Assembly: GCA_044892505.1 (NCBI GenBank)
Contig: CM097882.1
Coordinates: 239,382,001-239,446,000 of the forward strand
From: Schmidtea nova
Taxonomy: Eukaryota
Direction of reading: 5' to 3'
DNA length: 64,000 nucleotides
Positions 19,928 to 49,670 of the stretch are shown one piece after another. Every line of letters starts with the position of its first letter. The first letter of the stretch is position 1. The translations under genes were made by a program, and so were the position numbers. The notes beneath the pieces were generated by a model. It was given only the letters and a program-made list of their open reading frames with translations, did not search any database and had not been told where the DNA came from.

Positions 19928-20733
19928 GTCTTCAGTAGGAGGCTATGAGCGGTCCAGATCCACTACCCCCCATGTGTGTATATTACGTAATCGCTCGGAC
20001 TTTACATAGCACACATGATTACGCAATTCTCGGGTTTTAAATAGCACACACGTTATTACGTAATATTTCTCGGCCTTTTACATAGCACACAAATTATGAC
20101 GTCATGATTACGTAATCGAGGTCAAAGGTCAAGGTCATTTCGAGGTCGAGGTCAAGGTCATTTTTTTGTTTTAATTTTAATTTTTTGGCGCAATTTTTGA
20201 ATTTTATTGCCGTTTGTTTAAATAAAGTAAATAATTATTTTTTTGGCGCAATTTTTGAATTTTACCGCATTTTTTTTTTGAATTTTAGTGTAAATTTTTT
20301 GTCGCAATTTTTTGAATTTAAGCGTCATTTTGTTTAATCTGTTGGGCCCACCAATTGGTCTAAAAAGGCAAAAATATTGTACTAATTTAAACAATAAATA
20401 CAAATAATAACCACAAAAAAAAAAAAAAAAAAAAAACATTCGAAAAACCTAAATTAAAAATTAAAATAAAATAATAAATAATAATTACTAAATTTCCAGC
20501 AAAGGAAGAAAATCAAATTGACACGAGAACGAGCAGTATGGGGGTCTGAAATAAGAAAATTACAAATAAAATCAAATAAAAGTACAATTAATTGGTTAAT
20601 TACTTGAAAAATCGAGACCACCCAGCGAGAAATCTGAACCGGAAATTTAAAATGGTTTATATTAAAATAAAATAACAAAATTACTTTGATGGACGGCCTG
20701 ATCCTGATTGGTCAATCTGACCAACTGGATCAG

Positions 20734-20741
20734 TATAAATA
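20734..20741 (+). promoter_or_regulatory. Putative LTR TATA box with upstream CCAAT/ATTGG boxes
   Basis: TATAAATA preceded by GATTGGTCAATCTGACCAAC (~20706-20725); same in all three LTR copies. Confidence 0.45.
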
Positions 20742-21637
20742 CCGATCCAAAAATCATACAGATAACACCTAACAAATTAGTTACCGAACTGATCTATCAT
20801 AGTCAACTTTGATACGATAAATACTGTATAAATTTTTGGAGAACACTGCATCGTGGATTTAAACAGTAAATTTTTTTTTTGTATTGTATTTTGTATTAAT
20901 TTTTATGATATGTTTCATGATTCCCATTTGTTTTATTTTCATTTAATATAATTTATTACTATTGCTCTATTTCTCTTATGCCATTATTTTTATGATATAA
21001 TAAATATACTTCCTCAGTAGCTTACGCTGCGAGGGAGCAAGCCGTAAATGTGGGATTTCACCGTTCCACAAGATGGTGAGCAGAGTTTTTATTAGTATTC
21101 TTTATTTAATTTCATTTTATCGGAAGTTTCACGGTACGGTAAAGTTGTGCAGGGACAAGGACACGAGTAAAATTTGTAGACAGTGGTTAACATTTACATT
21201 CGATCAGACAGGCGAAAACAAAACTATAATATCAATTATCAGGTCGACTAGATCGATTTTTCTCATATACACGCGAATTTTTGTGAATCAACATAGCGGA
21301 TCGAAATAACGTCCGGACACACCGAGACGATTTCGACGTTCCAACTACAGTTTAATTTAGACATAAATAACGACATATTCGGATCGACACTACTGATTAA
21401 ATAAATAAAATCGTAACCTGATCGCTGTACATAGCGCAGGTAATAATAGGTAAATTTTTCATATTCCGATCGCTGTACATAGCGACGGTGTTAATTGAAT
21501 AGTCTGGAAAATATTTTTTTTATTCCTCCTTTTCACATTTTTTTTGTGTTATTGATCAGCGAGCAGAGCACTTTTTTCTCAGGTCTCACCAAAATTTACG
21601 GATTCGTCGCAATAAAATTTATTATTAATTTTCTCAG

Positions 21638-22138
21638 ATGAAAGCAACGATGCTGGATGAATTTCTAACCACTCAACGTCATGTGGCACGGGTCGAAAAT
21701 CCTCTAATCCGGACGCAACGGAAGAAATTGAAGTCGCTCCCACAGGAACTCCTCAGAACGCTAAATGCGTTGATGTATAAATGGAGAAGGGAACTAGGAA
21801 AGAAATGTCCATTTTCGATTTGGACCGGTGGATTGGATACCATCGTATATCGAGGAGGCCCCGGATGGGAAATTCAGGACGAAAGAGACCGGGAGACGAC
21901 AGCTCTGTTCATCATAGTGGTGTCAGACAGCGAAGGAAATCCCACGACAGCGATCCATTGGGGATATGTCTCACCGCTCAAGTTGCTTAAATTCGGGTTG
22001 ATTCCGAATCACCTACCGAAAACGTGCCACGGACGCCCCAAACTAAACTGTTCGATGGCTCACATCCGAAGAAATCCAGTCAATCACGGGTTGCATATTA
22101 CTCCCGTTCACGGCCTCAAGCGAAGTGTTTTCCACTAA
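21638..22138 (+). CDS. LTR-internal ORF1, 166 aa, unknown function (copies at 1503-2003 and 47903-48403)
   Basis: GC-richer open frame in an AT-rich LTR; preceded by ttttctcag|ATG and followed by AATAAA (22175-22180) and a GT-rich tract; intact in all 3 LTRs. Confidence 0.6.
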   Translation: MKATMLDEFLTTQRHVARVENPLIRTQRKKLKSLPQELLRTLNALMYKWRRELGKKCPFSIWTGGLDTIVYRGGPGWEIQDERDRETTALFIIVVSDSEGNPTTAIHWGYVSPLKLLKFGLIPNHLPKTCHGRPKLNCSMAHIRRNPVNHGLHITPVHGLKRSVFH

Positions 22139-22277
22139 ACATTATATTCACATTTTTATAAACTAAACGATTTCAATAAATTAAATGGTGTTGATCCGTG
22201 TTTTTGTTTGTCCTTAGTTAAATTTATTTCTATTTATTTAATCATATGATTTTTACACTCGACGGATAATATTAATC

Positions 22278-22913
22278 TTGGTAACATGTTTGATGCATTA
22301 TAAATTGGGTTTGTTATTTAGTATGACGGAAACTAGCCAACAGCGAGAATTGGACAAGGCGTGGAGAATCCGCCGAGCATTGGAGAAGGAGCTAAACCAA
22401 GAAAAAGCCTTACGAGCCAAAGCAGAAGCTCAGATTCAGCATTTACGGACCAGCTGGTTCGCACCAGCTCGCATGAAGGAGCAGATGAGTCGGACAGAAA
22501 GGGCTCAAAGGACAGCTGACGATTATCGCACCGAATGGGAAGCAACAAAAATTGAGTTGCGCCGATGTCTCCATTCGGTGACGACTTCATTTATCGAGTC
22601 CGAATTGAAAGCACAAATCCGACCCATTACCTACCAGAAATGGGTAGGAGAACAGAAAGTGGCCTGCTCAGTCAGTACGGACACCGATGGACTCGAGGCA
22701 ACCACAGTGCAGAGTCGAGTGGAAACCACCACTGCACCAACTCCCGCCGGAAAACCGAATAAGCGAAAACGAATCGGCTCCAAGCGTCGTCGCCAAAGGA
22801 AGCTGTTTTCTCAGCAATTGCAGACACAAGTAACCACGATGGCAGGAATGTCGGAAGCCGAGTGGTTGGCAGAGATGTTTCCACCTGAAGGAATATTCAA
22901 AGAATTCCTATAA
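22278..22913 (+). CDS. LTR-internal ORF2, coiled-coil protein with basic NLS-like motif (first ATG 22323; copies at 2143-2778 and 48543-49178)
   Basis: Heptad-like N-terminus (RELDKAWRIRRALEKELNQEK) and KPNKRKRIGSKRRRQRK; intact in all 3 LTRs. Confidence 0.6.
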   Translation: MVTCLMHYKLGLLFSMTETSQQRELDKAWRIRRALEKELNQEKALRAKAEAQIQHLRTSWFAPARMKEQMSRTERAQRTADDYRTEWEATKIELRRCLHSVTTSFIESELKAQIRPITYQKWVGEQKVACSVSTDTDGLEATTVQSRVETTTAPTPAGKPNKRKRIGSKRRRQRKLFSQQLQTQVTTMAGMSEAEWLAEMFPPEGIFKEFL

Positions 22914-23411
22914 CAGCTAGAATACGATGTCAGATTGTGGACTTAATTAAAATTTTGCTCGTTTTTGTTTTTTTTTTGTTGTTGTTAATTCCTAAGTATT
23001 TTTCCTTCGATTACATAATTCGTACCATTACCTGTAAATTACCCGTCACACAACGAAAAGAGTAGCGATAAAGAACTTAAATATTATCAAATTCGTAGTT
23101 TCGTTTTGCTTGTTTGTTTTTTGTTTTTACGATAATTACATAACCGCACACACACACACAATAGAACTATAATTGCGTAAGTCCTTCTACGGCCGCGTGA
23201 ACCCGTAAACATAAAGGGGGAGTAGTCCTAGCAATAGTGCTCACCTGCCCCTCATTGTTTAATCACCCTGCGCATCACCAACTTGGTTATCAAGGGAAAT
23301 AATCAAGGGCGCTCGAGTGTAACTTACGACTATTTATGCATGATCATGGATGGAAGATCCCTAGCCGTCATTTGAATTTTTATCAACCCGTCCATGAACC
23401 CAGCATAAATT

Positions 23412-23429
23412 TGGGGGCTCAGCCGGGAT
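23412..23429 (+). other. Primer-binding site, tRNA-Pro-like
   Basis: TGGGGGCTCAGCCGGGAT, 16/18 match to the retroviral tRNA-Pro PBS TGGGGGCTCGTCCGGGAT, 6 nt after the LTR end. Confidence 0.85.
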
Positions 23430-23783: not shown

Positions 23784-23784
23784 A

Positions 23785-24288
23785 ATGATAAAAACAACAA
23801 AGTTAAAACGATTATTTATTCAGCAAATGGAGGAAAAACTGAAAGAAATCGAAGAATTTCTCAACACAGAAAGCGAAACATTAGCAACAATTGGCAAGAA
23901 AATAAACCGATTTAGAGAAATTGAATTTCAAGAACCCACAACACAGACCGAAGAAACAGATGAATTAATAAAGATAACAGAAAGAACAAGTAAAATCGAC
24001 ATAAAAACCCGCTACAAATGGTACCAAGCACGACTAGAGAATGCGGAGCTAAACATTAGATGCAGACAAATAGAACAACAATTAACCCCAACATACAAGC
24101 GATGGAGGGCGCAAGGGGTAGAAGCAGCGAAAAAATACCGACAGTGCTATATATGTGAAAACAACGAGATACAAATTATGTTTTTACCTTGCGGACATTT
24201 CCGTTTTTGTAAGATCTGTGCCAGCAAGTGTGACCGGTGTCCGATGTGCAACTTTACCGTGAATGAAAAAATTATAGTTTATTTGTAA
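23785..24288 (+). CDS. Coiled-coil + C-terminal C3HC4 RING protein (IAP/MDM2-type RING, no BIR), 167 aa (copy at 3650-4153)
   Basis: CYICENNEIQIMFLPCGHFRFCKICASKCDRCPMC at 24145-24249, close to the C-terminus. Confidence 0.85.
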   Translation: MIKTTKLKRLFIQQMEEKLKEIEEFLNTESETLATIGKKINRFREIEFQEPTTQTEETDELIKITERTSKIDIKTRYKWYQARLENAELNIRCRQIEQQLTPTYKRWRAQGVEAAKKYRQCYICENNEIQIMFLPCGHFRFCKICASKCDRCPMCNFTVNEKIIVYL

Positions 24289-24853: not shown

Positions 24854-24904
24854 GAGGCCAACGAGCCTTATTGAATGACCTAGCTAGGCGTTATGGAGAG
24901 ATTA

Positions 24905-25084: not shown

Positions 25085-25694
25085 AGTGGATTATAGAGAT
25101 ATCCGGATAAATAGTAACAGAGGGAATATAGACCCATAGTGTAATCGTCGACGAGATTTAGAATAGTGCGCACTAGTAGTTAAGAAATGCGAGTAAAGCT
25201 GATTATGCAACCTTAAGTAAAGCATGCAAGGAGAATAATAAAAATTCGAGCTGACCGGAGCAACCGGCAGAATGAGTAAAACGATTGCTAGCAGGGAATA
25301 ATGAATAAAGATGATAAAATAATGATAAACGAGTCAGAAAGACTCAGGGAATTAGAGCGCTCGAGCGACCAATAAATTGGGAAACTGTGGGAAAAGTAAT
25401 GGATTTGATAAAACATAGATAATTATTACGACATAAATAGATAATTGTGACCAGTCTATAGATAATTTAAATAGACTAAAAATAAAGGGGAATCTGGGAA
25501 TTGGGAAATAATGAAAACCCAGTAATAAGTAATCCCGAAAGAAAGGGAATAAAAGCGCGACGATAACAATAAGGTATCGTTGAGGACCTTTGTATTTTAG
25601 ATATACAAATCAATCAAATCAATCAAGCAACAAGAAGAATCAGAAAAACGATAATAGATAGGACAAGAAAATTGATAATATAAAAGTAATCCAG

Positions 25695-28600
25695 TTGAGA
25701 AAAGGAGCAAAGAGTGTCGCAATAAAGCCAACAAAAAAGCAGAAAGCCGGCAAAGATAACCACAAAAACCCACAAGGGAGTAAAGCGAGGAAAATAATAA
25801 GAGATAAATCAATTATCGAAAACGATAAATTGTCAGTAGTAAGCAACAGCTCAAGTAACAAAGAGAACCAAGCGGAACCCAAGGAGAACCAAACAAGCGA
25901 AATAGAAAGCGACGAAACTATCAACGATAATATCGAAGAAGTAGAAAACGAGGTAGAACCAGAGGTAGAAACCAACGAAAGTGATAACGAAAGTATAATA
26001 TCAGATAACGAAGGAATAAGAGAAACAGAAAGCGATTCAAGCTCGAGTGGAACAGAAGACGAACATAACAACGAACTAGAAACAAGAGGAAACGAAAGTA
26101 AAATAACTCAAGACAGCGGAATTGAAATGGGTGAACCAAGAGAAGAAATAAAGGATAAATTTTCAGGAGAACCGTTTAACGGAGATGCGAGTAAATTGGA
26201 AATTTTTCTAAAGGAATTTGGCATATTCGTGGAAGTATGCAAATGGAAAGCTGAGACAACAGCAAGTAGAATACAGTTATATTTGAAAGATAGTGCATTG
26301 GACCTATATTTGGAAGCGAAAAATGGTACCAATCCACCTACAAGCTGGTCAGCGATAAAGGATTTTTTCCAGCAAACATTTGGAATAAATAAAGTGCTAA
26401 GCGAAGCATTCATAGAATTTTCGATGAGAAAACAAAAGATGAATGAGTCTAACGCGGTATACGCGAGCGAACTGAAAAAATTAGCAAAATCGGTATTCAA
26501 GGATGGGGGTCCAATAAACGAGGAATTAATGGCAGCCATCTTCATAGGAGGATTAAGAAGACCCGACATAAGAGCGCAAGTTGGATGCCAAGGATGCAAA
26601 ACCATAGACCAAGCGTTAGAGACAGCTAACCGATTTGAATTACATATGATAGGAAGCGAGGGTAGAATTTATTTAGCCATGGACACAGCACAAACCGAAC
26701 CAGAGGTAAATCTCAACAATCACATTCCAAATTCGCAACAATTAAACCGACCACCCCCTCAACGAAGGAATGAAGGAAATAAAGTGCAGAACTTTGGAAA
26801 CCAAAACAATTACCACCCTCAAGGACAAACAAAACAATGTAAAACATGCGGGAAGTTGGGACACTGGCAGCAAGAATGCTACCAAAATTTGAATTGCGGA
26901 AAATGTGGAGTTAAAGGACACTCGGAAAGTAGATGTTCTACAATAATCTGTTTTAATTGCGGACGACCTGGTCACTACTCAAGGAATTGCGGACAAAAAG
27001 GTAATCAACGGGGAAATTGGCAGAACAACGGAAACCGACCAAATTACGGAAATCAAACAAATACTGCAAATCGACAAGATTATGGCAACCAACAGGTCAA
27101 TAATAACAATAATCAGAACAAAACTACCACCAAAGAAATACATTTGATGCAAGAAGTTCAAAGATTGACGGAACTTATAAACAATACGACGAGAGGGAAC
27201 CCGCAAACCAATCAACAACAAATTAGCATGATGAGAAAAATAGAAAGCGAAAACGAACGATTGAATCGAGAAAGTCAAGCACGACACGCTCAGGAATGGG
27301 CAAGAATACAAAGAGAGGATGAACAAAAACAGCAAGAAAGAGAACGACAACCTCTAAGAATTAACATGCTAAGAGCAACAAACCAAACAGACACTCGCGA
27401 GAAAGAAACCACACTGGAAATGAATTCGATAGACCCGAATCCAGCCGACAACGAAAGTCGAAAAGAAATAGTACAAAAAGATGAGGAAGTAGAAAAAGAA
27501 GTAGAAAAGGAAGCGGAAACTGAGATAAACCAAGAAGAGAGAAGAAAAATTTGGAAAAAAGGAATGATGGTAATCATGCCCAACGACCATGTGTTTCGAT
27601 TCCAATATAACGCAAAAGAAAAGGTGGAAATACTATTCAATAAAGTAAACCAGATGATTCCAGGAGTAACGAAACTGCCCAGAGAAGCGTTCTTACAAAT
27701 AGGAGATGCACCATCAGTAAAATTGAAATTAACGGATATATGGGAAAACATGGGAGTAACAGAGACAAAAAGAAATGTGATGAGAATCAAAGAAATAGAA
27801 TCAGAAGAAATTCCACCACCAGTGCGTCACGAAACCCGAATCAGCCGAATATTTAAAGGAAAAATGATACGAAGACGTTTGAAAGAAATAGACGAGTTAG
27901 AGAAGAAAATGAGAAAAGTCGAAGTAATAGAGGATAAGAGTGAACCAACACTAGAGATTGCCAAAAACGAACCAGAACCAACGGAGAATATACAAGGGGA
28001 AACGAACCAAATAGCTCATATTAGTATGTTAAGAAATACCACCAGAGAGTTTTCCGATGAAGAAGAAGATAGCGACATCAGTAGCCTAGCAGGAGACATA
28101 TTAAACGAATCCGAAGACGAAAATAAAGAGAGAGAAGTAATAAAGACCTCAGAACCTACACAGATAAAAGTAGATGAAATCCAGAAATTACTAGATAACT
28201 CGTTAGAAGTAATATATAACGAAGAGTTCATGGACAAGAAACAATATCGGAAATTCATGAAAGCATTATTACAAATGAACTACAAAGATTGGTTACAAGA
28301 CCGGGAAGTGGACATGTTAAATCGATACGTAGGGAAATTAATAGAGGAACCACTCCTCAATTACACTATCTCAATAATAATAAATACATCTACACCAAGA
28401 ATCTGGATCAAAACTCCATTTACAGACGATATCTACAGATGGGTAGAGGATAGACTAGGGAGCTCATATAAAAACAAATTCATCTATTCGCAGAATAGAC
28501 TCGTAAAGAAAAGAACGCACTTAGTAGAAACAGGTATATGGCCAGGAGAAATAACTCTGTTATCAATATGTGATGAGAAGGAAGAAGAGAACCTACAAGA

Positions 28601-31600
28601 AGTTGCAAGGGAAGCAAACACGTGCTTTGAAAGGAGAATAAAACCCCGGTTAGAATACGAGAAAGAACGAGTCTTACGAAAGAATCTAAATTCCCTGATA
28701 GAACAAATCATACCACAAGTCAAAAAACATAGAAAAGAGTTAATGAGAAGCGAATACGAGAAACTGAAACGATGTATTGAGTGCATACGTGACACAAGTC
28801 ACACGAGATGGTCACAAATCTCACACGACAAATTAATCGCAAAAATGGGAAAAACAATGTTCAGACAAGGGAAAATAACAGACCTAAAAATTTCAGTGGA
28901 ATTGCCTAATGAAGACACCAAAGAAATTGAAGTAGTAGCGGATTGCACCATTAAAGAATTAATAAATGTCATCAACGAGACACTAGTGCAAAGAGAACCA
29001 GAAGACGAATGGGAAGACGACATAATCATACAATATAACGAACATGTATTATGGGATCACGATGAGAGACGACTATATAAAATCGGTATATGGGATAATC
29101 ACCAAACCATCCACGTTATCAGAATGGACGATACACCCAGAGAAACTGCTAAAGATGAGAAAAGAGAACGGGAACGACGGAAAGAAGTTGTGCGCAAATT
29201 ACAACAAATAGTAGAAATTTATCGAAATTGGCGAATTTGGCCAGAGTGGGAAAATGTATTAGAAGAACTCAATCTCAACAGACGAATACGAACACCCATA
29301 GAAAAACAATGGAACGAGAAAGGAAAATGTTGGGAACCAAAAGAAGGGGAATATGAAGAAGAATATGAAAGAGGAATGGAAGATGACTGCGAACCAGAAA
29401 TGAGAAGGGTTTGCATGGTGACAAGGAAAGCTACGCCAATAGACCTAGATGGACCAGAAACAGCGGCTATATGGGTAGAAAAGGAAAAGCAAAAAACGGA
29501 AGAATTTGTCGAAATATTAAAAACTAATGCGCACGGTAAGAGAAAAATAATAAAAGGTCTCGCAGATTTTTTCGTGGTTAATGGAGAAGATATAACATGC
29601 TTACGCAAAGTAGCAAAAGCAATCGCAGAATATAAAAGAGTCAACGAGTGGTGCCCGGAACAACTAGACCATGTAATTAGGAAATGGAGAAACCAAGAAT
29701 TCTCGCAGGAAATTCCACAGAAAGTGCATTTAAGAATAATATATCCAAACAAGGATAAGGAAGAATTGTGGGTAGGAATAGCAGAAAAAATTCGAGATAT
29801 TAAAAAGAAATTGAGATACGAACCACCATTCCATTTACAACACCAAGGACGATCATTAGATAACAGTTTGGAAATCAGAATAACGCCAGCACAACTAGAT
29901 CTCATGAATACCTTGACAGTAGAAGCAATAGCAGGTCAACCATTGAAACGTAAAGAAGAAAACCATAAACCACACGGAAGTATAAGTACGCCGAGCCCGA
30001 TGAAATCAGTACTAACACCAGGGACAAGTTCAAGACGATCTGAGACAACACCCAGAGGGAATAGAGAAATGACTCCACCACAACCATACGACGTGGACGA
30101 AATTTTAACGGATAGCGACGATATGATAGAAGAATTAACCGAATTAACAAAAGAAAAAGACGATAACATTTTCGAAAGAATACAAGAATTACCTACGACA
30201 ATACAAGTAACCAACACCGGAGAAACAGAAGTCGAAGAAGAAATAATAATAGAAGAAATAAACGATTTGATAGAAGACGAAGCGAGAGGGACGAATGTCG
30301 AAAATGTACAATTAACCCAAGAAATGGAAAGATGGTTAGAAGAAAGAGCTAACGAACCAAGAGATGTCACGGAAGAAACAGGACGAGCAACAAGATTTGT
30401 GGAAACGGTTACAGGAATGGATAGACGACCTCGAGGTAGACCCAAGACAGATCCGGCAAATGTAGTCATCAGAAATAAGGATGAAAAGAGACAAGATCAA
30501 TGGGAAGTATGTTTAAAGAAATTAAATAAAATCGCGGAGATAAAAGAAAAAGAGACAACACCAATATGTCAAGGTGAGGAATGGATATCGAAAACAATAA
30601 TGGAAATATTGGCAATAATTGATCCGGAATTGAAAAAATACTGGCGTATAACTGAGATAAGCGAAAAGGCGAAGTCATTGCACAGCGCAATTGCACCCAT
30701 CTTACCGGAATTCATAAAAGTAAAGACGAAGTCAAATCATTTAGACTGGCAAGGAACCACTACGTTAATAAAGAAATTGACAGAAGGAGCGGAAACAGAT
30801 AACAAATACGTGATAGCCATTGCATACACCATCTACAACCTACTAACACTGAGTAGAGGTCGACCAAAACCCACTGCGTTGGAAAGACACATAAAAAATA
30901 CCGCAAAAATTATAGCCAGAGAAATAGAACCATACATCATTAACAAAGGAGGATGGGAAACATTTATAAAAACTAACCAGAAGAAAACGCAAGCCAAGAA
31001 TATGAAAAAGAAATTCGAAAAAATATTGGAAGAGTTAGAAAAAGAACAAGCAGGAACAGGAAACGCGAAGTCATCAATGAATTTGAGTTCTATAATAATG
31101 ATGATGTTGATATGGATGATTAGCACCGATAGCGCAACAGCATTCGAAGTGTTTGATTGCGACCAAATGAAGTTAGGAGAAAAGTATTCATTGAGAGGTA
31201 CGGAGCAATGCAAAGATGCAACTCCAGTAGAGTTGCAAAAGATTAAAAAGGAACAATGGTACCACGTGTATCAAGAAGCAGAACTCATAAAGACAATGGT
31301 GAATGAATGTAAGGTGCAGAAGACAAGATTCGCATTCTACTGCGGGAGAGGACATTATTCAGCAATTGTCATGCCAGGAACGGAAAGAGAACCAATCGTG
31401 TTACAAGGAGAGGACTGCGAAGCATTGTTTAAACATGGAGAAGTAACAACAAGAGATAAAATCAAGATAAAAGGAAAGCCAGGAATGATGATGCAACAGA
31501 CGTACTATGTAGCAGGACGGATTACGGGAGGAGAAGGATATTGTCAAGGAGAAACCTACCCGATGTTCGGAACACTCGCAACCAACTTAGTGGTGATGGA

Positions 31601-34600
31601 TACGTATATAGTCGAACTAAAAAGCTATGAAGCATTCTTCGAACCCACAACGGGAGAAATGAAAACGTTATCCATGTGTAAAATCGACAGGAGCATGTGT
31701 CAAACGGGAATGTCAACATTAGTGTACAAACCAAAGGTGAACGAATGTCAATTACAACTGCTACAAGGAGCAAAGTTCGACGAAATCCAAGGAAAAACGT
31801 TCCAGGAAGAAGACGATGACGACAAAGCTAGAGCAAAGCATCTCAAGGAAGCTTTAGAGAATAAAAGACAACTGAAACCAGACCATAGAGAAAAACGGAT
31901 AGAGATGAGAGCCACACCAACAGTGTTGATAACCACAAATCAGGATGTGGGAATGAGGTTCATAAAAGGGAAAGCAACCCTTAAGTGTAGTACAACGGTA
32001 TACGAAACGAATTATCCAGGAATATATGTGTCAAAACAAGAAGTGCCAAATGCGAAACCCAAAATCGACACAATGGATATCAAACTACACCTATATGTGA
32101 ATAATAAAATGGATTTCCTATTCCATAGAGGACAAGCCTCATTACAAAAAGTGTACTACGATCTGATAAACAATGATTGTATACTAAATCGAGAAATATT
32201 AAAGACAAAGTTGGCCGTAGCAATTACGAATCCAGACAGCGCGATGCCATTATTACCACTGAGAGAAGGACATTTCGGAAGAGTGGTTGGAGAAGCAATG
32301 TATGTATACATTTGTGAAAAGACACACGCATCGCTAGCAGCAACAACACAGTTGAAACCTGGAACCTGTACAAATGAGTTAGAAATCGACTACAAAGGAA
32401 AAGTACGATACGTTCAACCAGTGACGAGAATCATCAATCCACCAGGGTTTGAACCAAATCCATTCAACTGTAGTAATGCGTATGGACCACTTTATCAGAA
32501 ACCAGATGGTAAATGGGTTATGTTCCCAGGAAGATCCGAAGTGATAGCACCAAGAGAATTCGAGCTAATGCAGTTGTCAAAGGATAGGCAATTCAGCGAC
32601 GTAGATGTCTCAAACAACGGAATATATAGTCCAAAGGATTTAGAAGCAGCAAGGCAGAATATATTATTTCCAGCGAGAAGAGAAGCATTACTGTCAAATA
32701 TCGTAACGATAACGGGAGGAACGGATTATCGAGAAGGACCGAATTATGAACTGTTGTTATCACCAGCACATTTCAAAAAAGCCACGGAAAATATGATGAA
32801 AGCCATGTGGGGAAGATTCCTGATATTTGGACAAATGATGGCGGGAATACTGGGGGTTATATTAATAATACAAATCGTCAGAGTGATAATAACGCAAATG
32901 TTAGCGTGTTTCGATATCTACAAAAGAGAAAAGAGAGTGAATTGGAAAATGGTAGTAGGATTTTTACCATTCCTTGCGAAAACAATGGTGTTGCACGGAC
33001 ACTCAAAAGATATCCATCGAATAAAAAGACTCCTAAAGATACTAGCAAAAATGAAGGGAACAGATGAAGAAGTAGGACGAAAATTTAAAAAGATAATGAA
33101 TGACGAACAAGCAAGACAACAGCTCAAGAGAGAAAGAAAAGGTCTATGGGAGAGGGTGAAAGGATATAAAACCCAAAATGATTCGAGTGACGACGATGAC
33201 GACGATGACGACTATAAGGGAGGACAAGTGTATAAGAACCAAGCACCACAATACATCGAAAAGAATCCAGCCGACGCATGGAAATGTTACGCACCTCCAC
33301 CAACCATGTATCAAGAACCACTACAAGGAGGAAAAAATAGCACGATGCAAATGATGCCAATGACAAATGTATACCCCATGATACCAGAGGATTATAAAAT
33401 GAGAAGATGTAGAAGCGTGGATCCACAAGGAGACACACATACAATCGCCGTAATGTCATCTAACACAGGTCCAGTGTTAACCACAACAATAGAAATTAAC
33501 GGAAGAGAAATCGAAGCAATGATCGACACTGGAGCAAATATTTCCGCCATCGACATCAAATGGATACCACAGGAGCAAAGACGAGAAATAGAAAGGACAA
33601 ACGTCCACGTAATTGCATGTAGCAAGGAAGTTGTAGAAGTAGCAGGAAGATGGTGGGTAAAAATACGCCACTTAAACACAGAAATCGATACCTACGTAGC
33701 AGTTATACCAGCATTAAGCGTGCCTTGCATTATCGGAACAGATTTGATGCCAGCATTATTTAAAGAGATTGTAATCGATCTCGGAACAATGAGACTAAAA
33801 GATCGCACAGGACAAATATGCGCAATAGAAGCCAAGGTGACAAGTTCAAAGCAAATGATAATACCGGCAAGAAAGGAAAAAATATGTTACGTAAAAATAG
33901 ATCCGACAATCCAAGGCGATATGATTTTCGAACCAAGTAAGAGATTCGAGAAAAGAAAAGCGTTGCCAATGGCAAGAGGATTAGTCAACATAAATGATAA
34001 TGGAGAAATCCCAATAAACGTGGTAAATTTCGACGAAGAGGATAAAATAATCTACGAAAACGAAAGATTAGGTAAATTAACCCCAATGATGGATATAGAA
34101 CTACCAATAGCAGGAGCAGAGAAAGATAAAGAACCAACATGGAATATTGATAGTGAATTATTAAATGAGAATCAAAAGAAGCAATTAGAAAAACTGCTGA
34201 CAGAGTATAAGGACATATTTGCAGCATCCGATTTGGATCTAGGAACCTGTGATGTCACGTTACATACGATACCACTAACAGACGAAACACCGATTGCATT
34301 AAGGCCGTACAAATTAGCAGAAGCACAGAAAGCAGTAGCAGAAGCAGAAGTGAAGAAAATGTTGGATGCAGAAGTGATCGAACCAAGTTGTTCACCCTGG
34401 CAATTTCCAGTAGTAATGGTAAAGAAGAAAGACGGAACACAGAGATTCTGCATAGATTATCGAAGATTGAATACAGTGACAAAACGAGATACTTACCCAT
34501 TACCAGACATCAACGAAATGCTACTAACATTACAGGGAGCAGCATATTTTACATCGCTAGATCTGAAAAGCGGATACTGGCAAATAAAAATGAAGGAAGA

Positions 34601-37600
34601 AGATAAAGAGAAAACTGCCTTTACCATCGGTAGAGACCTATATCAATTTCGAAAGATGCCCTTTGGATTAACAAACGCACCAGCATCATTTCAGAGATGC
34701 ATGAATTTCGTCACCCATGGAATAAAGCAGTGTATGGTCTACATCGACGATTTATTAATCTACTCTAGCACGTTTGAACAACACATACAGGATATTCGAG
34801 ATGTATTCGTTAGACTTAGACAATGGAAGTTAAAACTCAAGCCATCCAAGTGTGATTGGGCGAAAGAGAAAGTAACATTTTTAGGACATATAGTGTCAGC
34901 AAAAGGAAAAGAACCGGATCCTAGAAATATCGACAAAGTAAAGGAATGTCCAGTACCAAAAACAATAACCCAGATACAAGAATTTCTTGGATTATGTGGA
35001 TATTATAGAAAGTTTATAAAAGATTACGCCGGAATAGCAAAACCTATACAGGAACTAGTAAAGAAAGATGTATCCTTCATATGGGGAGACGAACAACAAA
35101 CAGCTTTCGAGACATTAAGAGATAAACTGATAACCGCACCCATATTGGTACACCCAGACTTCAAGAAGCCATTCTTACTTGCAACAGACGCAAGCGGATA
35201 TGCAGCAGGAGCAGTATTAGGACAATACGACGATGAAGGAAAAGAACGCGTAATCGGATATTATAGCCGGACATTCAAAAAGCATGAGAAAAATTACTCA
35301 GTAACCGAGCGAGAAGCGTTAGCAATTATACTAGCAATTAAACACTTTAAATATTTATTATGGGGACACATCATCTGTATAACCACAGATTACCAACCGC
35401 TTGTGTGGTTAGGACAACATAAGGAAACCTCCAGTAGATTAATGCGATGGGCAATGCAGCTACAGGAGTACTCACCAGACATAAAATTTAAATCAGGACG
35501 AGCGAATGCGAATGCAGACTGTATGTCCAGACTGACATTTCCGGAATTAACCGACCCGGATGTACAACGAATTTGTGTATTAATAGCAGAAGATTTAGAT
35601 TTTAGTGAGTTAAAGAAAGATCAACAGGAAGACAGAGAGTTAGGACAGATCATAGAGTTCCTAACATCTCGAAATATAGAGGTACTCAAAGATAATAAAG
35701 AATTAAAGGAACATATAGGAAAATATCAACATCGATATATAATAAATAAAGGATGGTTATTGATACAAGACGGTGAAAAGAGGCTGATGTGTTTACCGGA
35801 AAACAGAAGGAAAGAGATAATGATCCAATACCACGATGGGAAATTAGGAGGTCATATGTCAGAGAAAAAGACAATAAATCGGATGAGACAGAAATATTAT
35901 TGGCGAACAATGGAAGAAGATATAAAAGAATGGATTAAAAATTGCCTAACCTGCGCAACTAGAAAGGATAGTGGGAAGAAATGGAAGAACCCGCTACAAC
36001 CAATGCCGATACCAGCAGAGCCAATGACAACTATAGCAATGGACGTAATAGGACCATTACCAGAAAGCTTAAACGGAAACATTTACATACTGGTAATAAC
36101 GGATTACCTGACGAAATTCCCGGAAGCATTTGCCATGCAAGATCAAAAAGCAAAAACCGTAGCAAAAATTCTAGTGGAAGAAATATGCTGCAGATATGGA
36201 ACTCCAAAACAAATACTCACAGACCAAGGAACTAATTTTATGAGTGAGTTATTAGGCGAGGTGACAAACTATTTCAGAATAGCGAAATTGAGAACTTCAC
36301 CATATCATCCACAAACGAATGGTCAAACAGAGCGATTCAATGGCACATTGATTAGAATGTTATCAAACTATGTCAGCAGACACCAAACTGATTGGGACGA
36401 ATACATAAAATTATGTTTAATGGCATACCGAATGTCGATACATGCCGCAACAAAACTAAGCCCGTTTCAACTTATGTATGGCAGAGAATGCAACATGCCC
36501 ATAGATTTGGAGTACCAGCCACCATTATCGCAATATATGGAAGATGACGACTACGTAACCAAATTCAAAGAAAGAATGCAGGAAATATGGAAAACGGCAG
36601 AACTTAACATTAAATTTTATCAGGAAAGTTATAAAGACTTACACGACCAGAAGAAAAATGTTAAAGCGAACGATCTAAAACCAGGAGATTGGGTGATAAT
36701 AGAAACTCCAGAAATAATACCAGGAACGGTTAAGAAACTCCAAAGACCTGGAAGAGGACCTTATGAAATTATATACAAAAAGGACAACAATGTCAAAGTT
36801 AAGCTAATAAATCGACCGTTAATACGACCCATATATGTAAACACCTGCAGATGTAAGAAGGTGCCTAAAACGATAACTACAACACCAGAGAATCGAATAA
36901 TAACCAGATCACAAACAGCCAGGATAAACATGCTCAGAGCAAACACCAGCGAAGACGACAAAACAGAAATAAGGCAAAAAGAAATCAGAAATAAAGAAAT
37001 CCTATTGAAGGCGAGAGAGATAATGGGAAGATGGCATGTTAGAGACGAAGCAGGCATATCAAGGGACATTAGACACATAATTAGCCGTTACGCACAAGGA
37101 TTACCAACCGAACCAATTATTTCTGAATTATTGATAAAAATCCCTGAAATACTCTTATTAAAAGATGTAGGAGGACAACCAGCCTTACATAATGCGATTC
37201 AGTGTAAAAACATTGAAAGAGCAAAAGAATTCTTGAAAATCGCAAAAGATACAAACCAAAACCTAGACGTTGGGAATCGTGAACAGGAAACTCCATTAAT
37301 GACAGCAGCCATCTACCAAGCAGATAAAGAAATGGTAGATCTGTTGATAAAAGCCCGTTTCAGTTGGACAGAACGAGATAGAGAAGATAAAACAGTGCTA
37401 AATCACGCGATATGGAGTTCTCACCAACTTATGTTGGAATATATAATAGCAAACTCCACTTGGGAGATAGACGAACTAGTTAAAGGAGACATTATCAAAG
37501 AGGCAATCAAAATTGGTAAATGCAACACGATCCGTAAGTTAATCAAATGGAAACGACCAGAAGATGATACATGGGTCTTAGACATAAACGAAGTATACAG

Positions 37601-40600
37601 CGAAGGACAAAACGCACTGTTAAGATACCTTTTGAAATTTACTTGTGATCAGAAGACATTACTAACCTTATTAGACAGGGGAAACATAAACATCACAAAA
37701 AATGAAGAAGAACACAAATTCGATAAAGAGAAGGAGGTCTTATTCAACAAAATTAGGAAATGGTGTGCAAAACCACTTGATAAACTAATAACATACAAAG
37801 ACATAAATAATTTTAACGATAAATACCAGACTATAGTAAGTGAGTACGAGGAATTAGTAAAAATCTTAAACCATCCCGAAAAATGCAAACAGGTTTTGGA
37901 GAGAAAAGAAAGAGAAAGTAACAAGAAACTCACACCACTCTTCAAAGCAGAAGCACCATACCAAGCTAGACTAGATGCGATACAAGAAAAAGCAAAGGAG
38001 TTGCTACCGGACTTCGAGAATTGTCAACACGCATTAGAAATACTCGGTGCCTTAGTTGAAAAAGTACACGCGTACGCAAAAGGAACATACAATGGTAACG
38101 ATATAACGACTATAAAAAAAGAAATGCCAGTAACATTTTTACTACCAAAGGACGGAATAATGCCCATACATAGAGCTTTACGAAATGGCAAAGATAGAAA
38201 AGTAATGGAAATTGCACGAATAATGCTAAACTGCGGAAGCAACATGAATATGGTAGACGAGAAAGGAGATACACTCATGATATTTGCAGCAAGGGCCAAA
38301 ACAAAAACAAAAGTGTTGGAAGAACTATACAAAGCAGGTGCAGGACTTACAGGAAAGACAGATAAAGATAATTCAATTTTGGATGTAGCATTACTAACAC
38401 ATAATTGGGAAATGGTCAACTTCATTAAAACAATCTCAAATCAGGAAGAAATAGATTACCTAACTGATACGGTCAGGAAACCCAGTGTACTAGCAATGAT
38501 GAACAACGTCGAACTAACAGAATCAATACTTACGTGGATAAATCCGAATACCAACGAACCAGCATTCAAGATTAATGAGTTTACAGAACATAACCAAAAC
38601 TGGTGTATAAGAAGTGCCCTAATAACATATAAATGGCCAGAGATATTGAAGATGTTTATGGAAAGAAAGGATCTAAGAGTCACAAACAACCCGAGAGAGG
38701 GAAAATACACAGGCAAATGGAAAGAATTAATGAGGACATACATCAACAATTGGATCAAGGCCAAAAAGGAAATCTTAGAATATAAATCCACTAACAAAAT
38801 AATACCGGAGCAGATAGAAACACAAGAATTTGAGGCAAGTAATCTAACGACATTAGCATACGCAAAATTGATAGAAGAAATCAATGTCGAGGACGACATT
38901 TTCGACGAGCCAGGGGGAGATGACAACACAGATAGTGACGACGGTAACAACTCAGAAAATTCAAGCGATCACGAACCACCCGATAAAGAGGAAAACGAGA
39001 GAAAAGACAAGAAACGAGACAAGGAAGGAAAGAAAGGTGAAGACGAAAAACAAAGAGATGAAGAGAGAGAACAAGGAACAAACGACCAAGGAGATAAAAA
39101 TGACACCCAAAGAACAGGTTATAAATCAACCATAAAACCATTCTTCAAACCAGAATTACTATTACTAACAATGATTATAACGTTAATTAATCCAAGTCAA
39201 GGAATGACATGTGAAGAAAGGGCAATAATACAAATAAAAAACGCAAAAGGAATCGAACGAGTATGTTGGTCAAAAAAGGACAAAATCACGGAACAAAATA
39301 GCCCGATGGATTGCAGAATCTCAAAACACGAGCAAGAAATCATAGAGATCAACGACCTGGATCTAAATACCTGGTACAAAATATGCACCGTTAGAAAACA
39401 AAAGCATCCAAGATCACACAACAAAATCGCATGTGCAAAATACCAAACACCTAAAGCAGCCATGACAATACAACAGTCACCCAAAGGAGATTACATCATC
39501 GGAAAATGTGGAAGGACAGAGACACAGGGAACAGAAAACAAAAAACCCCAGGCAACAGATAAGCAAACAACACCAACCCTACGAATTACAATAGAGAGGC
39601 CTGAAGCAAGAGTTGCCACAAACGAAACCGAAAGAGTGTCCTACCAAATGGAAGTATTATGTTTAGCACTCATACTAATAATGATAAAACGATTAGAGGA
39701 AGGGATAGAAATTGAAACTATGACAATAACAGAAGTAGAAGATACACAGAATACTAACATAAAATGTTGGGCGAGAAATAACGAGGAAATCGGCGTAAAC
39801 GAAATAAGGAAAAGTCGAAAACCAACAACGAATAAAGTAATTAAAATATCCGAAGTAAAAGCAGATAAGACGTACAAACTATGCCTACTAGAAAAAGAAA
39901 CGAACAAGAAAGGTACCACAAAATGTAAAACATTTCAACCTGGAGAGGTAATAAAGTTCAGAAGGAGAACGAGGAAGAGAAATAAACAAATCAAGCGGAA
40001 AGTAAACATAACATTAGAAATAAAAGAGATAGAACCAAATGTGAAAGGAGTATGCTGGAGGAAGTACGAAAAAGAAGTAAATAAAAGAACGACACCACAT
40101 TGTCGAACAAACACAGGAACAACGACGATTCAAATAAAAGGTTTAGAAAGTAAACAAACCTACGAAATATGTTTGGTAAAGAAAAATGATCAGATAACGA
40201 TAAACGACCTAGAATGCGGAATATATACAACGTCATCCGGAACAAGAACCAAAACGTTAACACGGAAAAATAAAAGGAAACAACGAAACAAAGGAAAACC
40301 GAAGTACACCACTACCTTTAAAAACAATAAACAACCAACAAACCAAGAAGTTACGACGAAACCCGAGAGAAAAACATCAGCAACTCTAACATTATGGAAA
40401 ATAGAGAATAAAACATTAGAAATATGTTGGATAATAGTACAGAAACATATAAGAAGACAATCAAGAGAATGCAGAAAAACAAATAAAGAAATCAAGATCG
40501 AAAAACTACAATTTAATAGCGAGTACGAAGTATACGCAATAGAAATAATGGACGCACTAAGAAACCAACAAGAAAGATGCGAAACCTACTATACACCAGT

Positions 40601-43192: not shown

Positions 43193-44569
43193 ATGGACCG
43201 AGATGAACGGGTAATCGAAATCTTGAGATTAGAAAACAGAAAATGGAGCAAGAGGCTCACATGCGGAAAATGTAATAATTTATTGCGAGAACCCAGACAA
43301 ACGATATGTGGATGTAGAATATGTACAAAATGTATACAAGAATTAGATGCAACAGGAATAACAACATGCCCAGAATGTAAGGAAGGAAGAATAGTGTTGG
43401 ATGAAACCAGAATGGACAAAGCAACCCAAAGAGAAATTATGAGCACCACAACGGAGTGCGTAAATACACCTTGTACATGGCAAGGACAAATAAGTAATCT
43501 GGAAAACCATATGGAAAAATGCGAGGAAAAGAGAGCCGAATGCGAGAAATGCCAACAGACAATAACTCTAAAGAAGAGAGAACAACACAAGGAAGAATGT
43601 AAAGAAGAAGAAATCGCATGCGAGTATTGTGAAACTCGAGAAACAAGGAGAAAAATCGAAGAAGAACACTTAAATATAACAGAGGAGAAAGTATGCAGAC
43701 AATATGTAAGCAAATGTCCAAACAATTGCGAAATAACAGAAGAAATAAAGTTACATGAACATTGGAAAATATGTACCGAAAGGCCAAGAGAATGTCCATA
43801 TAACAAGCATGGATGCAAGGAAAAGCGGACGCGAAAAACAATGAAACAACACTTGGAAGAAGCAGCACTAACGCATGTGGAAATGACAAACGAAACGACA
43901 AAAGAAACAGAACAGACAGTCCAGAAATTAGAAAAAGAAGTAGAATCACATAAGATAATGATGAGTTTACTACTAGAAACAAGAGAGCAGTTTGAACTAA
44001 CTCGCGAAAGAATGGAAAAGAAAATAATAGCCATAGAAGAATTAGGAAAAGGAATGAAAATACAATATAATCAACTAATACGAGAAATTGACGAAAGAAG
44101 GGACTTACCAATCGCACCTTACCTATGGAAAGTAACAGATTTCAGAGACAAACTAGCAGAAGCCAGAAATATGACGAAAACAGCAGTAATAAGCCCACCA
44201 TTTTATTTATGGAAAAATGGGGTTAAAATAAGATTGAAGGTCTACCCAAATGGAGACGGAAGAGGACAAGGAACACACGTATCAATATTCTTCTCGTTAT
44301 GTAAAGGAGAATACGATGACCTAATAGAATGGCCCTTGAAAGTAGGAGTCATTATAAGAATCAAAAGTATAGGAAAACCAGTAGAAAAGTTCTTTGAAAC
44401 AGACAAACATACGAGTACAAGCGAAAAACCAACAACAGAATGCGGACTAGCAGCAGGAGAACCAATGTTTATAAGGAAAGAAAACCTATGGGAGCGACTA
44501 TATGCAGACACGCTATACATAGAGATGGAGAGGCATGAGAAAACGGATAGAAAAGGATGGTTGGCGTAA
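43193..44569 (+). CDS. TRAF: TNF receptor-associated factor homolog (RING - Zn fingers - coiled coil - MATH), intronless
   Basis: RING CGKC..LLREPRQTICGCRICTKC...CPEC (43262-43378); TRAF Zn fingers; MATH YLWKVTDF...SPPFY...IRLKVYPNGDGRGQGTHVSIFFSLCKGEYDDLIEWP. Confidence 0.93.
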   Translation: MDRDERVIEILRLENRKWSKRLTCGKCNNLLREPRQTICGCRICTKCIQELDATGITTCPECKEGRIVLDETRMDKATQREIMSTTTECVNTPCTWQGQISNLENHMEKCEEKRAECEKCQQTITLKKREQHKEECKEEEIACEYCETRETRRKIEEEHLNITEEKVCRQYVSKCPNNCEITEEIKLHEHWKICTERPRECPYNKHGCKEKRTRKTMKQHLEEAALTHVEMTNETTKETEQTVQKLEKEVESHKIMMSLLLETREQFELTRERMEKKIIAIEELGKGMKIQYNQLIREIDERRDLPIAPYLWKVTDFRDKLAEARNMTKTAVISPPFYLWKNGVKIRLKVYPNGDGRGQGTHVSIFFSLCKGEYDDLIEWPLKVGVIIRIKSIGKPVEKFFETDKHTSTSEKPTTECGLAAGEPMFIRKENLWERLYADTLYIEMERHEKTDRKGWLA

Positions 44570-44683: not shown

Positions 44684-45745
44684 ATGGGAAATATAGAAGT
44701 AACCTTACAAGAAGTAACCGTACATCAAGACGAAATGATCAGAAATCACATGGAGCGGATTGGGATATGGATTCACGCCTATTATCGTAAACAGGAAGAA
44801 TTAGAAAGACAAACCGAAGTACTAAGAGAAGCTGAAGAAAGGAATCAAAGAAGTAGAGAAAAAATAGAGGAAGTCTATAAATTACTGAGGCAACAAAACG
44901 AATACTACAAAGGAATGATGAAAGAGCGACGAGAGGATAGAGATAGACAACAGATAAAAACAGACCACAAGATCCAGTCCATCACCGAACAAGCAAGATA
45001 TTGGAAGAAAGAGGCAAAAGACTCTTACAAGGAAGCAAGGGAGATAATTGAACGAACAGCGTATAGCGATGATTGGAAACTGTTTAAAGAGATCGATGAA
45101 TTAAAAGAGGAATTAGGGCAAAAGATCAGTCAAGAAGCGTCAAATAAGGTATGGAGTAAGAAAAGACAACAATTCATCAGAGAACAAGCCAAGAAAATTA
45201 AAGAATTAACTTATCAAGTACAAAGAATGGGAGAAGATTTAGCCAATCAAGAACAATTAAAAGGTATGCTGACCGGAATGTGGAATCACAAGGAAGAAAA
45301 CATGAAAAGAGACATAAATGGATACCAAGGAGTGATTACCCAGAAGAAAATAGAATTAAAAAGAACTAAAGAAAGACTAGAAGAAACGAGGCAGAGTTAT
45401 GAAGAGAACATAACCAATTTGACAAAAGAAAACGAAGAACTGAGAAAGAAGCTAACAGAAAAACCAGTACCCACAAAGGAAACAAGTATCACAGCAGCAG
45501 TGACCGAAATGATAAAGAAAGAAGAGAGAGAGAAAAAATTAGCAGAATTGGAAAAACAAATAGAAACCCTAACAGAGCAGGCGAACTATCTGGAATACTT
45601 ATTAGATGAAGAGATTCAGATATCCCACACATACCGAGAGGAAGTGGAAATGTGGAGGAGTACGGTAATATGGATGCCACTCCCCATAAATCAGGTGGAA
45701 CCTCAAGACGAAGGTTTTCACGAACCTAACGAAACCCTCGTGTAA
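44684..45745 (+). CDS. 353-aa long coiled-coil protein, unknown function
   Basis: Intact ORF, E/K/Q/R-rich heptads throughout. Confidence 0.75.
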   Translation: MGNIEVTLQEVTVHQDEMIRNHMERIGIWIHAYYRKQEELERQTEVLREAEERNQRSREKIEEVYKLLRQQNEYYKGMMKERREDRDRQQIKTDHKIQSITEQARYWKKEAKDSYKEAREIIERTAYSDDWKLFKEIDELKEELGQKISQEASNKVWSKKRQQFIREQAKKIKELTYQVQRMGEDLANQEQLKGMLTGMWNHKEENMKRDINGYQGVITQKKIELKRTKERLEETRQSYEENITNLTKENEELRKKLTEKPVPTKETSITAAVTEMIKKEEREKKLAELEKQIETLTEQANYLEYLLDEEIQISHTYREEVEMWRSTVIWMPLPINQVEPQDEGFHEPNETLV

Positions 45746-45823: not shown

Positions 45824-46384
45824 ATGAGAAAGCTCGCAATACCAATACTCCTATGGTTAATAACCATCACCCTACAGAGAGAAGATCTACAACTTACCGA
45901 AACCCAATTACGAGTTCTACCCGACAAAACCTACCAAAAAGTAGACAGCCTAATCGAAGAAGTAATTAAAGAAATCAACGAATTCCGACAGAAATATCCC
46001 CACAATCAAGATCATCAAATCCAACAAATCTTAGATAACCAACAACTGAAACTAAAAGAAACCCAAAAAACCCTGAAAGAAGGTAGAGAGCCCATAAAAA
46101 GCCTAGCCCAAGCTGAAATAGAATATCAAGAGAAATGGATCATAGCAATCATCATAATCCTCTCAATCAGCGTAACTATCGTCGCAATCACAATCCTGAT
46201 TGCCTCCTACCGGATAAAAATCCTCAAACAGAAACAAACCATCGTCAATCAAACATCAAGGCGAGACAAACGAACCCAAAGACGTATGAGAAAACATCTA
46301 GATCAAATTCAGACCCACTACGAATTAGCTACAATCAATGAGAGAACTCAAACCCAACCCAATGCGAGCCGGAGGATCGAATAG
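45824..46384 (+). CDS. 186-aa predicted type I membrane protein
   Basis: Hydrophobic N-terminus MRKLAIPILLWLITITL, coiled-coil ectodomain, TM WIIAIIIILSISVTIVAITILIASY, basic tail. Confidence 0.7.
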   Translation: MRKLAIPILLWLITITLQREDLQLTETQLRVLPDKTYQKVDSLIEEVIKEINEFRQKYPHNQDHQIQQILDNQQLKLKETQKTLKEGREPIKSLAQAEIEYQEKWIIAIIIILSISVTIVAITILIASYRIKILKQKQTIVNQTSRRDKRTQRRMRKHLDQIQTHYELATINERTQTQPNASRRIE

Positions 46385-49600: not shown

Positions 49601-49670
49601 ATGCATGATCATGGATGGGAGATCCCTAGCCGTCATTTGAATTTTTATCAACCCGTCCATAAACCCAGCA
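46602..49670 (+). repeat. 3' LTR (3069 bp)
   Basis: By eye differs from the 5' LTR at about 4 substitutions and 2 homopolymer lengths; followed by TSD AATC. Confidence 0.96.

Follow-up and report, generated by a model that had tools for sequence, protein, structure and literature searches.

Giant retrotransposons that carry an envelope gene inside the polyprotein have been described in planarians. In the sections of PMC6431247 (2019) drawn on here, Burro is called the first element to carry env in frame, placed between gag and pol; in those of PMC13524379 (2026), gB-type GAG-ENV-POL elements are listed for flatworms, nematodes and bryozoans. As the former describes them, Burro and GYPSM1 of dugesiid planarians are about 30 kb long and have long LTRs and one giant ORF, with a CCHC Gag, Ubl, BCL2-like domain, env between BCL2 and PR, PR-RT-RH-IN, ankyrins and MATH/TRAF; their env has mononegavirus-type homology, and they occur as hundreds of near-identical genomic candidates. 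The element analysed below is alike in all these respects.

It is noted that the gag-env-pol layout is thus already known, being a hallmark of Burro and of the gB-type GAG-ENV-POL errantiviruses. Mosquito BEL/Pao elements reportedly carry a chuvirus-like G (Dezordi 2020); as here, a viral fusogen would then sit in an LTR element, although a BEL/Pao and not a gypsy one. Atlas virus, as far as it is described in the parts of 10.1101/2021.11.23.469668 consulted, is also an LTR element with a viral fusogen in one polyprotein (Gag-Pol-Env), but it belongs to BEL/Pao and its env is C-terminal and of class II, whereas the element here is of gypsy type with an internal env that maps to class III.

Results

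In the window (the whole stretch of 64,000 nucleotides of Schmidtea nova DNA that was analysed), there is a Ty3/gypsy element of 29,331 bp (20340-49670; all genes and domains given below lie on the forward strand). Its 5' LTR (TG...CA, 20340..23405) and 3' LTR (46602..49670), each of about 3.07 kb, are 99.77% identical and are flanked by a target-site duplication of 4 bp (20336-20339 and 49671-49674). The element has been copied recently. After the 5' LTR comes a primer-binding site (23412..23429), which we take to be tRNA-Pro-like. A stop-free ORF extends over 25662-42611 (5,649 codons), and from its first ATG at 26127 it encodes a single polyprotein of 5,494 aa (26127..42611), compared with 4,873 aa for Burro1 and 5,140 aa for the D. 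tigrina element in the description of PMC6431247. The order of the domains is Gag, Ubl, BCL2-like, Env, PR, RT, RH, IN and ankyrin. A truncated and frame-broken tandem duplicate occupies window positions 1-16827, corresponding to 20136-36964 with 99.98% identity, and includes a second, identical copy of env at 10942..12777.

The Gag (26127..26997) consists of a capsid-like region (PF03732, E 4e-4, below the cut-off) and CCHC knuckles (PF00098, E 3.5e-10). It is followed by two ubiquitin-like domains, at 28884..29135 (six-row profile versus ISG15, a weak match with E 0.003) and 29724..29939 (six-row profile comparison), and by a BCL2-like domain (30459..31010) with a BH2-type GGW motif at its end, directly before the env signal peptide. 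The six-family profile of the BCL2-like domain matches Bcl-xL (E 4e-4) across about 30 residues, while PF00452 is found in 3 of the 6 families, the window's own row being without a match. Downstream of env are the aspartic protease (33483..33755; PF00077, E 1e-7), a conserved insert (33798..34181), the reverse transcriptase and RNase H (34419..35471; PF00078, E 2e-37, and PF17917, E 4e-37), the integrase with H2C2 and core (35796..36311), placed after RNase H as in Ty3/gypsy, and two blocks of ankyrin repeats identified by Pfam (37170..38426). The Pfam matches PF00078, PF17917, PF17919, PF17921 and PF00665 in series give the PR-RT-RH-IN order of Ty3/gypsy (Metaviridae). The insert, which stands at the site of Burro's dUTPase-like domain, is kept in all 6 families; for a dUTPase fold it gave neither a Pfam nor a PDB match.

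Four accessory ORFs were recorded: one with a C3HC4 RING at its C-terminus (23785..24288; PF13920, E 4e-11), a TRAF-like one with RING, zf-TRAF and MATH (43193..44569; PF22486, E 1e-20, and PF02176, E 2.5e-6), a probable coiled-coil one (44684..45745; weak Filament match, E 0.005) and one for a small predicted membrane protein (45824..46384), whose hydrophobic stretches are read from the sequence. Thus MATH is here in a downstream ORF, whereas it is within the polyprotein in Burro as described in PMC6431247; in family E of the same genome, MATH is in frame within the polyprotein. By the same description Burro has a BIR domain, whereas a Pfam search of the polyprotein and of accessory ORFs of at least about 110 aa gave no BIR match here, and a RING ORF is present. 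We note that membership of Burro is judged here from the published description of Burro and GYPSM1.

The earlier note on this DNA had claimed that a signal peptide, a Cys-rich ectodomain and a TM lie within the polyprotein upstream of PR, and all three are indeed present in frame at 31077-32912, with PR from about 33483. Its description of a fusion between Gag and protease holds for the frame but passes over about 1,360 aa, with two Ubl-like domains and one BCL2-like domain, that separate the last Gag zinc knuckle from the env signal peptide; likewise its nucleotide coordinates are correct, but its residues ~1817-2406 fit neither aa 1806-2417 (counted from 25662) nor aa 1651-2262 (counted from the ATG). 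The internal signal peptide is the hydrophobic stretch at 31077..31142 with predicted cleavage at ATA|FEV, and the mature N-terminus so predicted is in register with those of standalone relatives, in which the signal peptide is N-terminal. The ectodomain (31143..32816), of chuvirus G/gB-like class III type by the evidence below, has 558 aa, 14 Cys and one N-glycosylation sequon; all 8 aligned rows have 13 of these Cys, the remaining one being present in 7 of 8, and ectodomain and Cys pattern are kept between families at 36-64% identity. The transmembrane helix (32829..32909; Kyte-Doolittle 2.55) and its juxtamembrane region are the most conserved part of env: in families F and E they have 89-91% identity, compared with 50-64% in the ectodomain. 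Beyond the helix there is a basic stretch and then a weaker hydrophobic segment (Kyte-Doolittle at most 0.9), which reaches 1.5 in families C and D. The ectodomain also contains a furin-like REKR, which was considered as a site and rejected, as it is not conserved in the other families.

The claim that this is a chuvirus-G or class III-like glycoprotein in a gypsy-type element is supported by the Pfam profile Monjiviricetes_fusion (PF24664), which matches env with E 7e-73 and 246 bits versus a cut-off of 27. The structural comparison proposed in that note gave a consistent result: with a low-confidence model of env (mean pLDDT 46, pTM 0.30; fair confidence only at env residues ~52-163 and 388-450), the top Foldseek rows are G of chu-, qin- and xinmoviruses (E 1e-21 to 1e-18), and among PDB entries those at E<=0.001 comprise herpes gB and a single GP64, with HCMV gB at E 6e-6. 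The region of gB domain IV aligns to the model with Z 5.0 and rmsd 3.6-4.1 A over 108-135 residues, while the whole-chain TM-score versus viral G and gB is at most 0.25, the full trimeric fold not being reproduced. Because this low-confidence model matches viral G and herpesvirus gB, the assignment of env as a class III-type glycoprotein is supported. The G proteins of Jingchuvirales, Qinviridae and Xinmoviridae (PF24664) and herpesvirus gB have in common with env a profile match, the register of the mature N-terminus with a conserved DC at its positions 5-6, a single C-terminal TM and class III structure matches; by contrast, the chu-, qin- and xinmovirus G of the Foldseek rows have 12-22% identity to env, and each is encoded by a gene of its own and has its signal peptide at the N-terminus. 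A sequence search of the PDB with env gave no match, and neither word-seeded protein searches nor scans for patterns in metagenome and viral contigs gave any relative; the full HMMER search run afterwards yielded 1,811 relatives, so that the blanks of the word-seeded and pattern searches reflect limits of sensitivity. The ESM Atlas gave a single unnamed match for env (0.76), which we record as a lead only.

Env is 28-63% identical to the envs of polyprotein type versus 20-25% to standalone relatives. The env tree unites 18 envs of polyprotein type in a single clade (99% SH-like support), with the window env nested within it, and an AU test, run post hoc once the tree was known, rejects a grouping of the window env with 8 standalone proteins (p-AU 7.8e-10). 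Moreover, RT and env trees agree on the deep split (A,F,E)|(B,C,D) among six taxa. Env thus follows the RT tree at this split, and these comparisons give no support to a fresh capture.

All 5 of the other giant families in the genome share the domain order, and in all 4 intact ones Gag to IN is in one frame; an rve search of the genome revealed no further giant families among 150 scored matches. Among 12 long database proteins, env is upstream of PR in 9 and after pol in none. A stop-free frame of at least 5,600 aa is present in 23 of the 74 scored copies, by which an assembly artefact is ruled out as the source of the env fusion. A 2-3x env depth in contigs of four runs (of a kind not given) had raised the idea that env is common to, or swapped into, another family; this was rejected on the numbers of assembly candidates, 786 by env DNA and 812 by RT DNA, summed contig depth being no measure of copy number.

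When copies are chosen by RT DNA, env is in place in 18 of 20; of their shared env variants, 124 are synonymous, 19 are missense and one is a stop, which gives a pN/pS of 0.042. PR together with the insert has a ratio of 0.039, RT has one of 0.005, and that for private env variants is 0.096. Env is thus under strong purifying selection among copies, matching that on PR. A count from copies ranked by env score (122 synonymous, 9 missense) came from a biased sample and was replaced by the RT-picked copies. For env, a comparison of family B with family C gives a dN/dS of about 0.03, although synonymous sites are there almost saturated; dS between families is saturated and most between-family ratios are unusable.

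Towards its C-terminus, the polyprotein includes a second and a third predicted type I membrane protein, each with a signal peptide and a TM, one with 4 FN3-like repeats (39147..40919) and the other with 3 (41148..42422). The parts of the literature on Burro and errantiviruses that were searched mention neither these two proteins with their seven FN3-like repeats nor a candidate protease motif that recurs in the polyprotein but is absent from its predicted luminal parts. The window protein has 8 instances of this loose motif, [IV]-x-[MVA]-[LMVI], versus a shuffle mean of 0.9, a control that is post hoc there because the motif was derived from that protein; its sites adjoin the PR, RH/IN and IN borders, with none in the predicted luminal parts. 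It occurs 9 times versus 1.0 in shuffles in family E, and 3 times versus 0.8 in family F, which is not clear enrichment; 14 of 500 shuffles reach it.

Discussion

We consider it likely that env is an inherited class III (chuvirus-G/gB-type) domain of a giant Ty3/gypsy retrotransposon of Burro type, that it is carried in frame in one polyprotein and that enveloped particles probably use it as their fusogen. From the frame, the domain order, the homology, the copy number and the purifying selection described above, we infer the following mechanism, with the membrane topology drawn from hydropathy. The first 1,650 aa (Gag, Ubl and BCL2-like) would be translated in the cytosol, and then the internal signal peptide would thread the env ectodomain into the ER, signal peptidase likely cutting at ATA|FEV. 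The env TM would halt the transfer, so that PR-RT-RH-IN would be translated as the cytosolic tail of Env, from which the element's protease would free the cytosolic proteins, probably at the recurring motif. Trimeric Env on budding particles would then fuse with another cell. Barring splicing or recoding, the single frame implies Gag:Env:Pol of 1:1:1. If the second, weaker segment after the TM spans the membrane, Pol would be placed in the lumen instead.

By contrast, it was proposed in the earlier note that the layout is atypical and suggests an independent capture; on this reading, the element would have acquired env recently from a chuvirus-like virus. It is true that the nearest named structural matches are glycoproteins of negative-strand RNA viruses and that, in the material of PMC13524379 consulted, the POL tree does not show GAG-ENV-POL elements as monophyletic, so that several old captures or rearrangements are possible. 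However, the layout is a published one, and the identities, the single clade of polyprotein-type envs, the AU test and the deep split common to RT and env all speak against a recent event, which is largely refuted and which we regard as very improbable. About equally improbable is that env is a passive passenger, kept free of stops and frameshifts solely through Pol downstream in the same frame. An in-frame site upstream of Pol would by itself select against stops and frameshifts, but such read-through selection spares missense changes, whereas these are purged too, as the low pN/pS of both shared and private variants and the comparison of B with C show.

Another possibility, which we hold to be rather unlikely though less remote than the former two, is that env is retained and undergoes the processing set out above, but for some purpose other than extracellular infection; it might, for instance, hold Gag and Pol at ER membranes while particles assemble, or else fuse or bridge adjacent cells with no free virions involved. 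This would be consistent with the TM and juxtamembrane region being the best conserved in env and with the 1:1:1 single frame that binds Pol to the membrane, and the portions of the literature searched give no particle or fusion data. On the other hand, a full ectodomain with its Cys pattern, under selection like that on PR, would be superfluous for a mere tether.

Returning to env as an inherited fusogen, we note that in order and env class the element is like Smed_errantivirus_1-6 (HSV/gB-type) of PMC13524379, in whose supplement, by eye and in the parts compared, the family B/C env very closely matches Smed_errantivirus_1 over domains I-II while the gap pattern of the window env is that of Smed_errantivirus_5 and _6. 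The passages of PMC6431247 drawn on relate the Burro env to the Env of gypsy and to fusion proteins of paramyxovirus type, whereas the env here maps to class III. What is added here is modest: the placing of the Burro env in class III, the purifying selection on env among recently transposed copies, and the proposed topology with Pol as the tail of Env; polyprotein topology and the C-terminal membrane proteins are, unlike here, untreated in the main text of PMC13524379 as far as it was consulted.

Finally, a further reading, which is conceivable but which we think doubtful, is that Burro is a multi-glycoprotein enveloped retrovirus-like agent, the polyprotein of which would cross the ER membrane six times, with the fusogen partnered by one or two of the FN3-repeat type I proteins (for attachment or as decoy receptors) and with the cleaved env signal peptide remaining on a viral-type BCL2 as its tail anchor. 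Should the FN3-repeat proteins indeed be partners of the fusogen, a retroelement would possess a herpes-like multi-protein entry set, and the cell-to-cell spread of Burro would be testable in a regenerating model animal.

Results

The env region (31077-32912), which encodes a glycoprotein within a single polyprotein, is stop-free and corresponds to residues 1806-2417 in a frame of 5,649 codons at 25662-42611 (residues 1651-2262 when counted from the ATG at 26127). A signal-like hydrophobic stretch leads into an ectodomain of 558 aa with 14 cysteines, which is followed by a TM, and the aspartic protease begins about 190 residues past the TM. The region matches the Pfam profile PF24664 (Monjiviricetes_fusion) with E 7e-73. 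The stop-free translation and the profile match confirm the earlier note, which had placed a signal segment, a Cys-rich ectodomain and a TM in frame upstream of PR. The location between Gag and protease also holds, but env does not adjoin Gag, since about 1,360 residues that include two Ubl-like domains and a BCL2-like domain intervene.

The complete polyprotein order is Gag, Ubl, Ubl, BCL2-like, Env, PR, insert, RT, RH, IN, ankyrins and two predicted signal-FN3-TM units, and the accessory ORFs encode one RING protein and one TRAF-like protein. Because the 5' and 3' LTRs, located by self-comparison at 20340-23405 and 46602-49670, are 99.77% identical and have TG...CA ends, and because there is also a primer-binding site, together with a target-site duplication of 4 bp, the element is a recently inserted Ty3/gypsy element of 29.3 kb. 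Each LTR carries the same pair of ORFs (166 and 206 aa; 21638-22138 and 22293-22913 in the 5' LTR), for which no convincing Pfam match was found. A 5.9-kb inverted repeat (99%; 49671-55599 and 55737-61666), with AT-rich minisatellites inside, starts exactly at the end of the 3' LTR. Moreover, the flank and the 5' part of the element lie in a 20,135-bp tandem duplication (1-16827 versus 20136-36964, 99.98%), which could reflect either a segmental duplication or redundancy in the assembly; its first copy is truncated, with the frame broken twice, and ends at N runs (16828-17327 and 17889-18044).

Among the best 74 of 3,719 candidate env matches in the genome, which were those scored, all have 99-100% identity, 72 have no internal stop and 23 lie in a frame of at least 5,600 aa. 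Selection was analyzed with 20 copies found by an RT DNA search: of its 40 rows, those ranked lowest supplied 19, and one further row was added. Two of these copies lie close to each other and are possibly not independent. In the 18 copies covering env, comparison with the window copy shows 124 synonymous, 19 missense and 1 stop among the shared variants, for a pN/pS of 0.042, which is close to that of PR plus insert (0.039), with RT lower (0.005). Thus, selection at the protein level maintains env in the replicating lineages.

The AlphaFold2 model of env, built with an 8-row alignment, is weak (pLDDT 46, pTM 0.30); only about residues 52-163 and 388-450 are modelled with fair confidence. A Foldseek search of viral models returned 68 matches at E<=0.001, the top ones being glycoproteins of qin-, chu- and xinmoviruses (E 1e-21), and a herpes gB ranked 28th; the PDB gave 28 matches at the same threshold, those listed being herpes gB and one GP64. 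VIA-align to gB gave Z 5.0, with an rmsd of 3.6-4.1 A in the domain IV region, while whole-chain TM-scores are at most 0.25. The chuvirus/class III-like character proposed earlier is therefore supported by the profile match and local structural matches, rather than by the whole fold or trimer.

Discussion

It is noted that the layout of env within the polyprotein, real as first described, is of a kind already known. PMC6431247 had already presented Burro as the first example of an env lying in frame between gag and pol. PMC13524379 describes GAG-ENV-POL elements of the gB type from Nematoda, Bryozoa and Platyhelminthes, with six in S. mediterranea, and PMC8532177 reports BURRO1 to be expressed and under PIWI control. 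Most features of Burro, the giant Ty3/gypsy elements of planarians, are present in the window element, as compared by description, and this likeness suggests that the host is a dugesiid planarian. Family E, one of five other element families of the genome (B-F), has the layout of Burro1 and nearly its stated size, with a 4,993-codon frame (about 4,880 aa from the start of Gag homology) in which MATH precedes BCL2 and env. At the place of Burro's dUTPase-like domain, between PR and RT, all six families have a conserved insert, for which Pfam and the PDB gave no match. No Pfam BIR match was seen in the polyprotein or in accessory ORFs of about 110 aa or more, and a RING ORF is present.

The atypical layout had been taken to suggest an independent envelope capture. 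In families B-F (one copy each), env is in the same place with 36-65% identity, and in all four intact families a single frame runs from Gag to IN. A profile search gave 1,811 relatives, and env precedes PR in 9 of the 12 long ones scanned and follows pol in none. In an unrooted 44-row tree, for which 38 of 150 listed matches were used with short fragments excluded, a single clade unites the 18 envs of polyprotein type and sets them apart from 26 standalone proteins; its sister is one more standalone row. The AU test on a 20-row subset rejected grouping the window env with standalone proteins (p 7.8e-10), and among the six local families the unrooted trees for RT and for env agree on their single well-supported split. 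The common position, the single clade, the AU test and the tree agreement indicate that env was inherited with the element lineage and not captured by the window element itself. No donor is claimed, as the trees lack a root and most of the standalone proteins are unnamed. Among related database env-pol polyproteins, P0001, P0004 and P0015 have at least two aspartic-protease domains after env, and P0006, filed under a Flavobacteriaceae MAG, is probably animal DNA binned with a bacterium.

In the proposed topology, the internal signal peptide would direct the env ectodomain into the ER, with a predicted cut at ATA|FEV, a position that lines up with the start of the mature chain in standalone relatives, directly after their N-terminal signal. 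The TM, followed by basic residues, would bring the chain back into the cytosol, so that Pol would form the tail of Env; this is made doubtful mainly by a second, less hydrophobic segment beyond the TM. A candidate protease site is a recurring hydrophobic motif at polyprotein aa 520, 566, 786, 1249, 2594, 2718, 3303 and 3754 (from 25662), which falls at the borders of PR, RH/IN and IN and does not occur in predicted luminal parts; defined post hoc, it is supported in family E and weak in family F. The BCL2-like domain ahead of env occurs in all six local families and in 4 of 13 database proteins. Within 30948-31142, the env signal peptide begins about 42 residues after a BH2-type GGW, at roughly the position at which cellular Bcl-2 proteins carry their tail anchor.

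The polyprotein ends in two predicted type I membrane proteins (39147-42422) with four and three FN3-like repeats. The repeat profile matches fibronectin (E 0.005), an Atlas search gave FN3 clusters at 0.82-0.86 as a lead only, and one repeat, modelled at pLDDT 85, matched FN3 domains with Z up to 8.2 and an rmsd of 2.8-3.6 A over 74-75 residues. Such repeats are also in families E (Pfam fn3 E 9e-4) and F. The C-termini of families B and C and of three database polyproteins likewise show a signal-like stretch with additional hydrophobic segments, in which the FN3 profile found no match. In families A (the window element), E and F, the C-terminal TMs are followed by a WP motif, which lies at about 40950 (after TM2) and 42460 (after TM3) in the window and may resemble Box1 of cytokine receptors. 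The seven-repeat pair may be new, as the literature searched (titles, abstract starts and passages) gave no description of it for Burro; figures or supplements of Grohme 2018 may already annotate C-terminal domains.

As to function, the likeliest role of env is fusion of enveloped particles, and the main rival is membrane tethering or cell bridging with no virions. Under the fusion role, we hypothesize that the FN3 proteins might partner the fusogen, a hypothesis only, as a shared fold shows no function. Finally, we put forward as a tentative and rather doubtful picture that Burro may be a multi-glycoprotein enveloped agent, in which the fusogen would act with FN3 attachment or decoy-receptor partners, the env signal peptide would serve as a BCL2 tail anchor and the polyprotein would cross the ER membrane six times.
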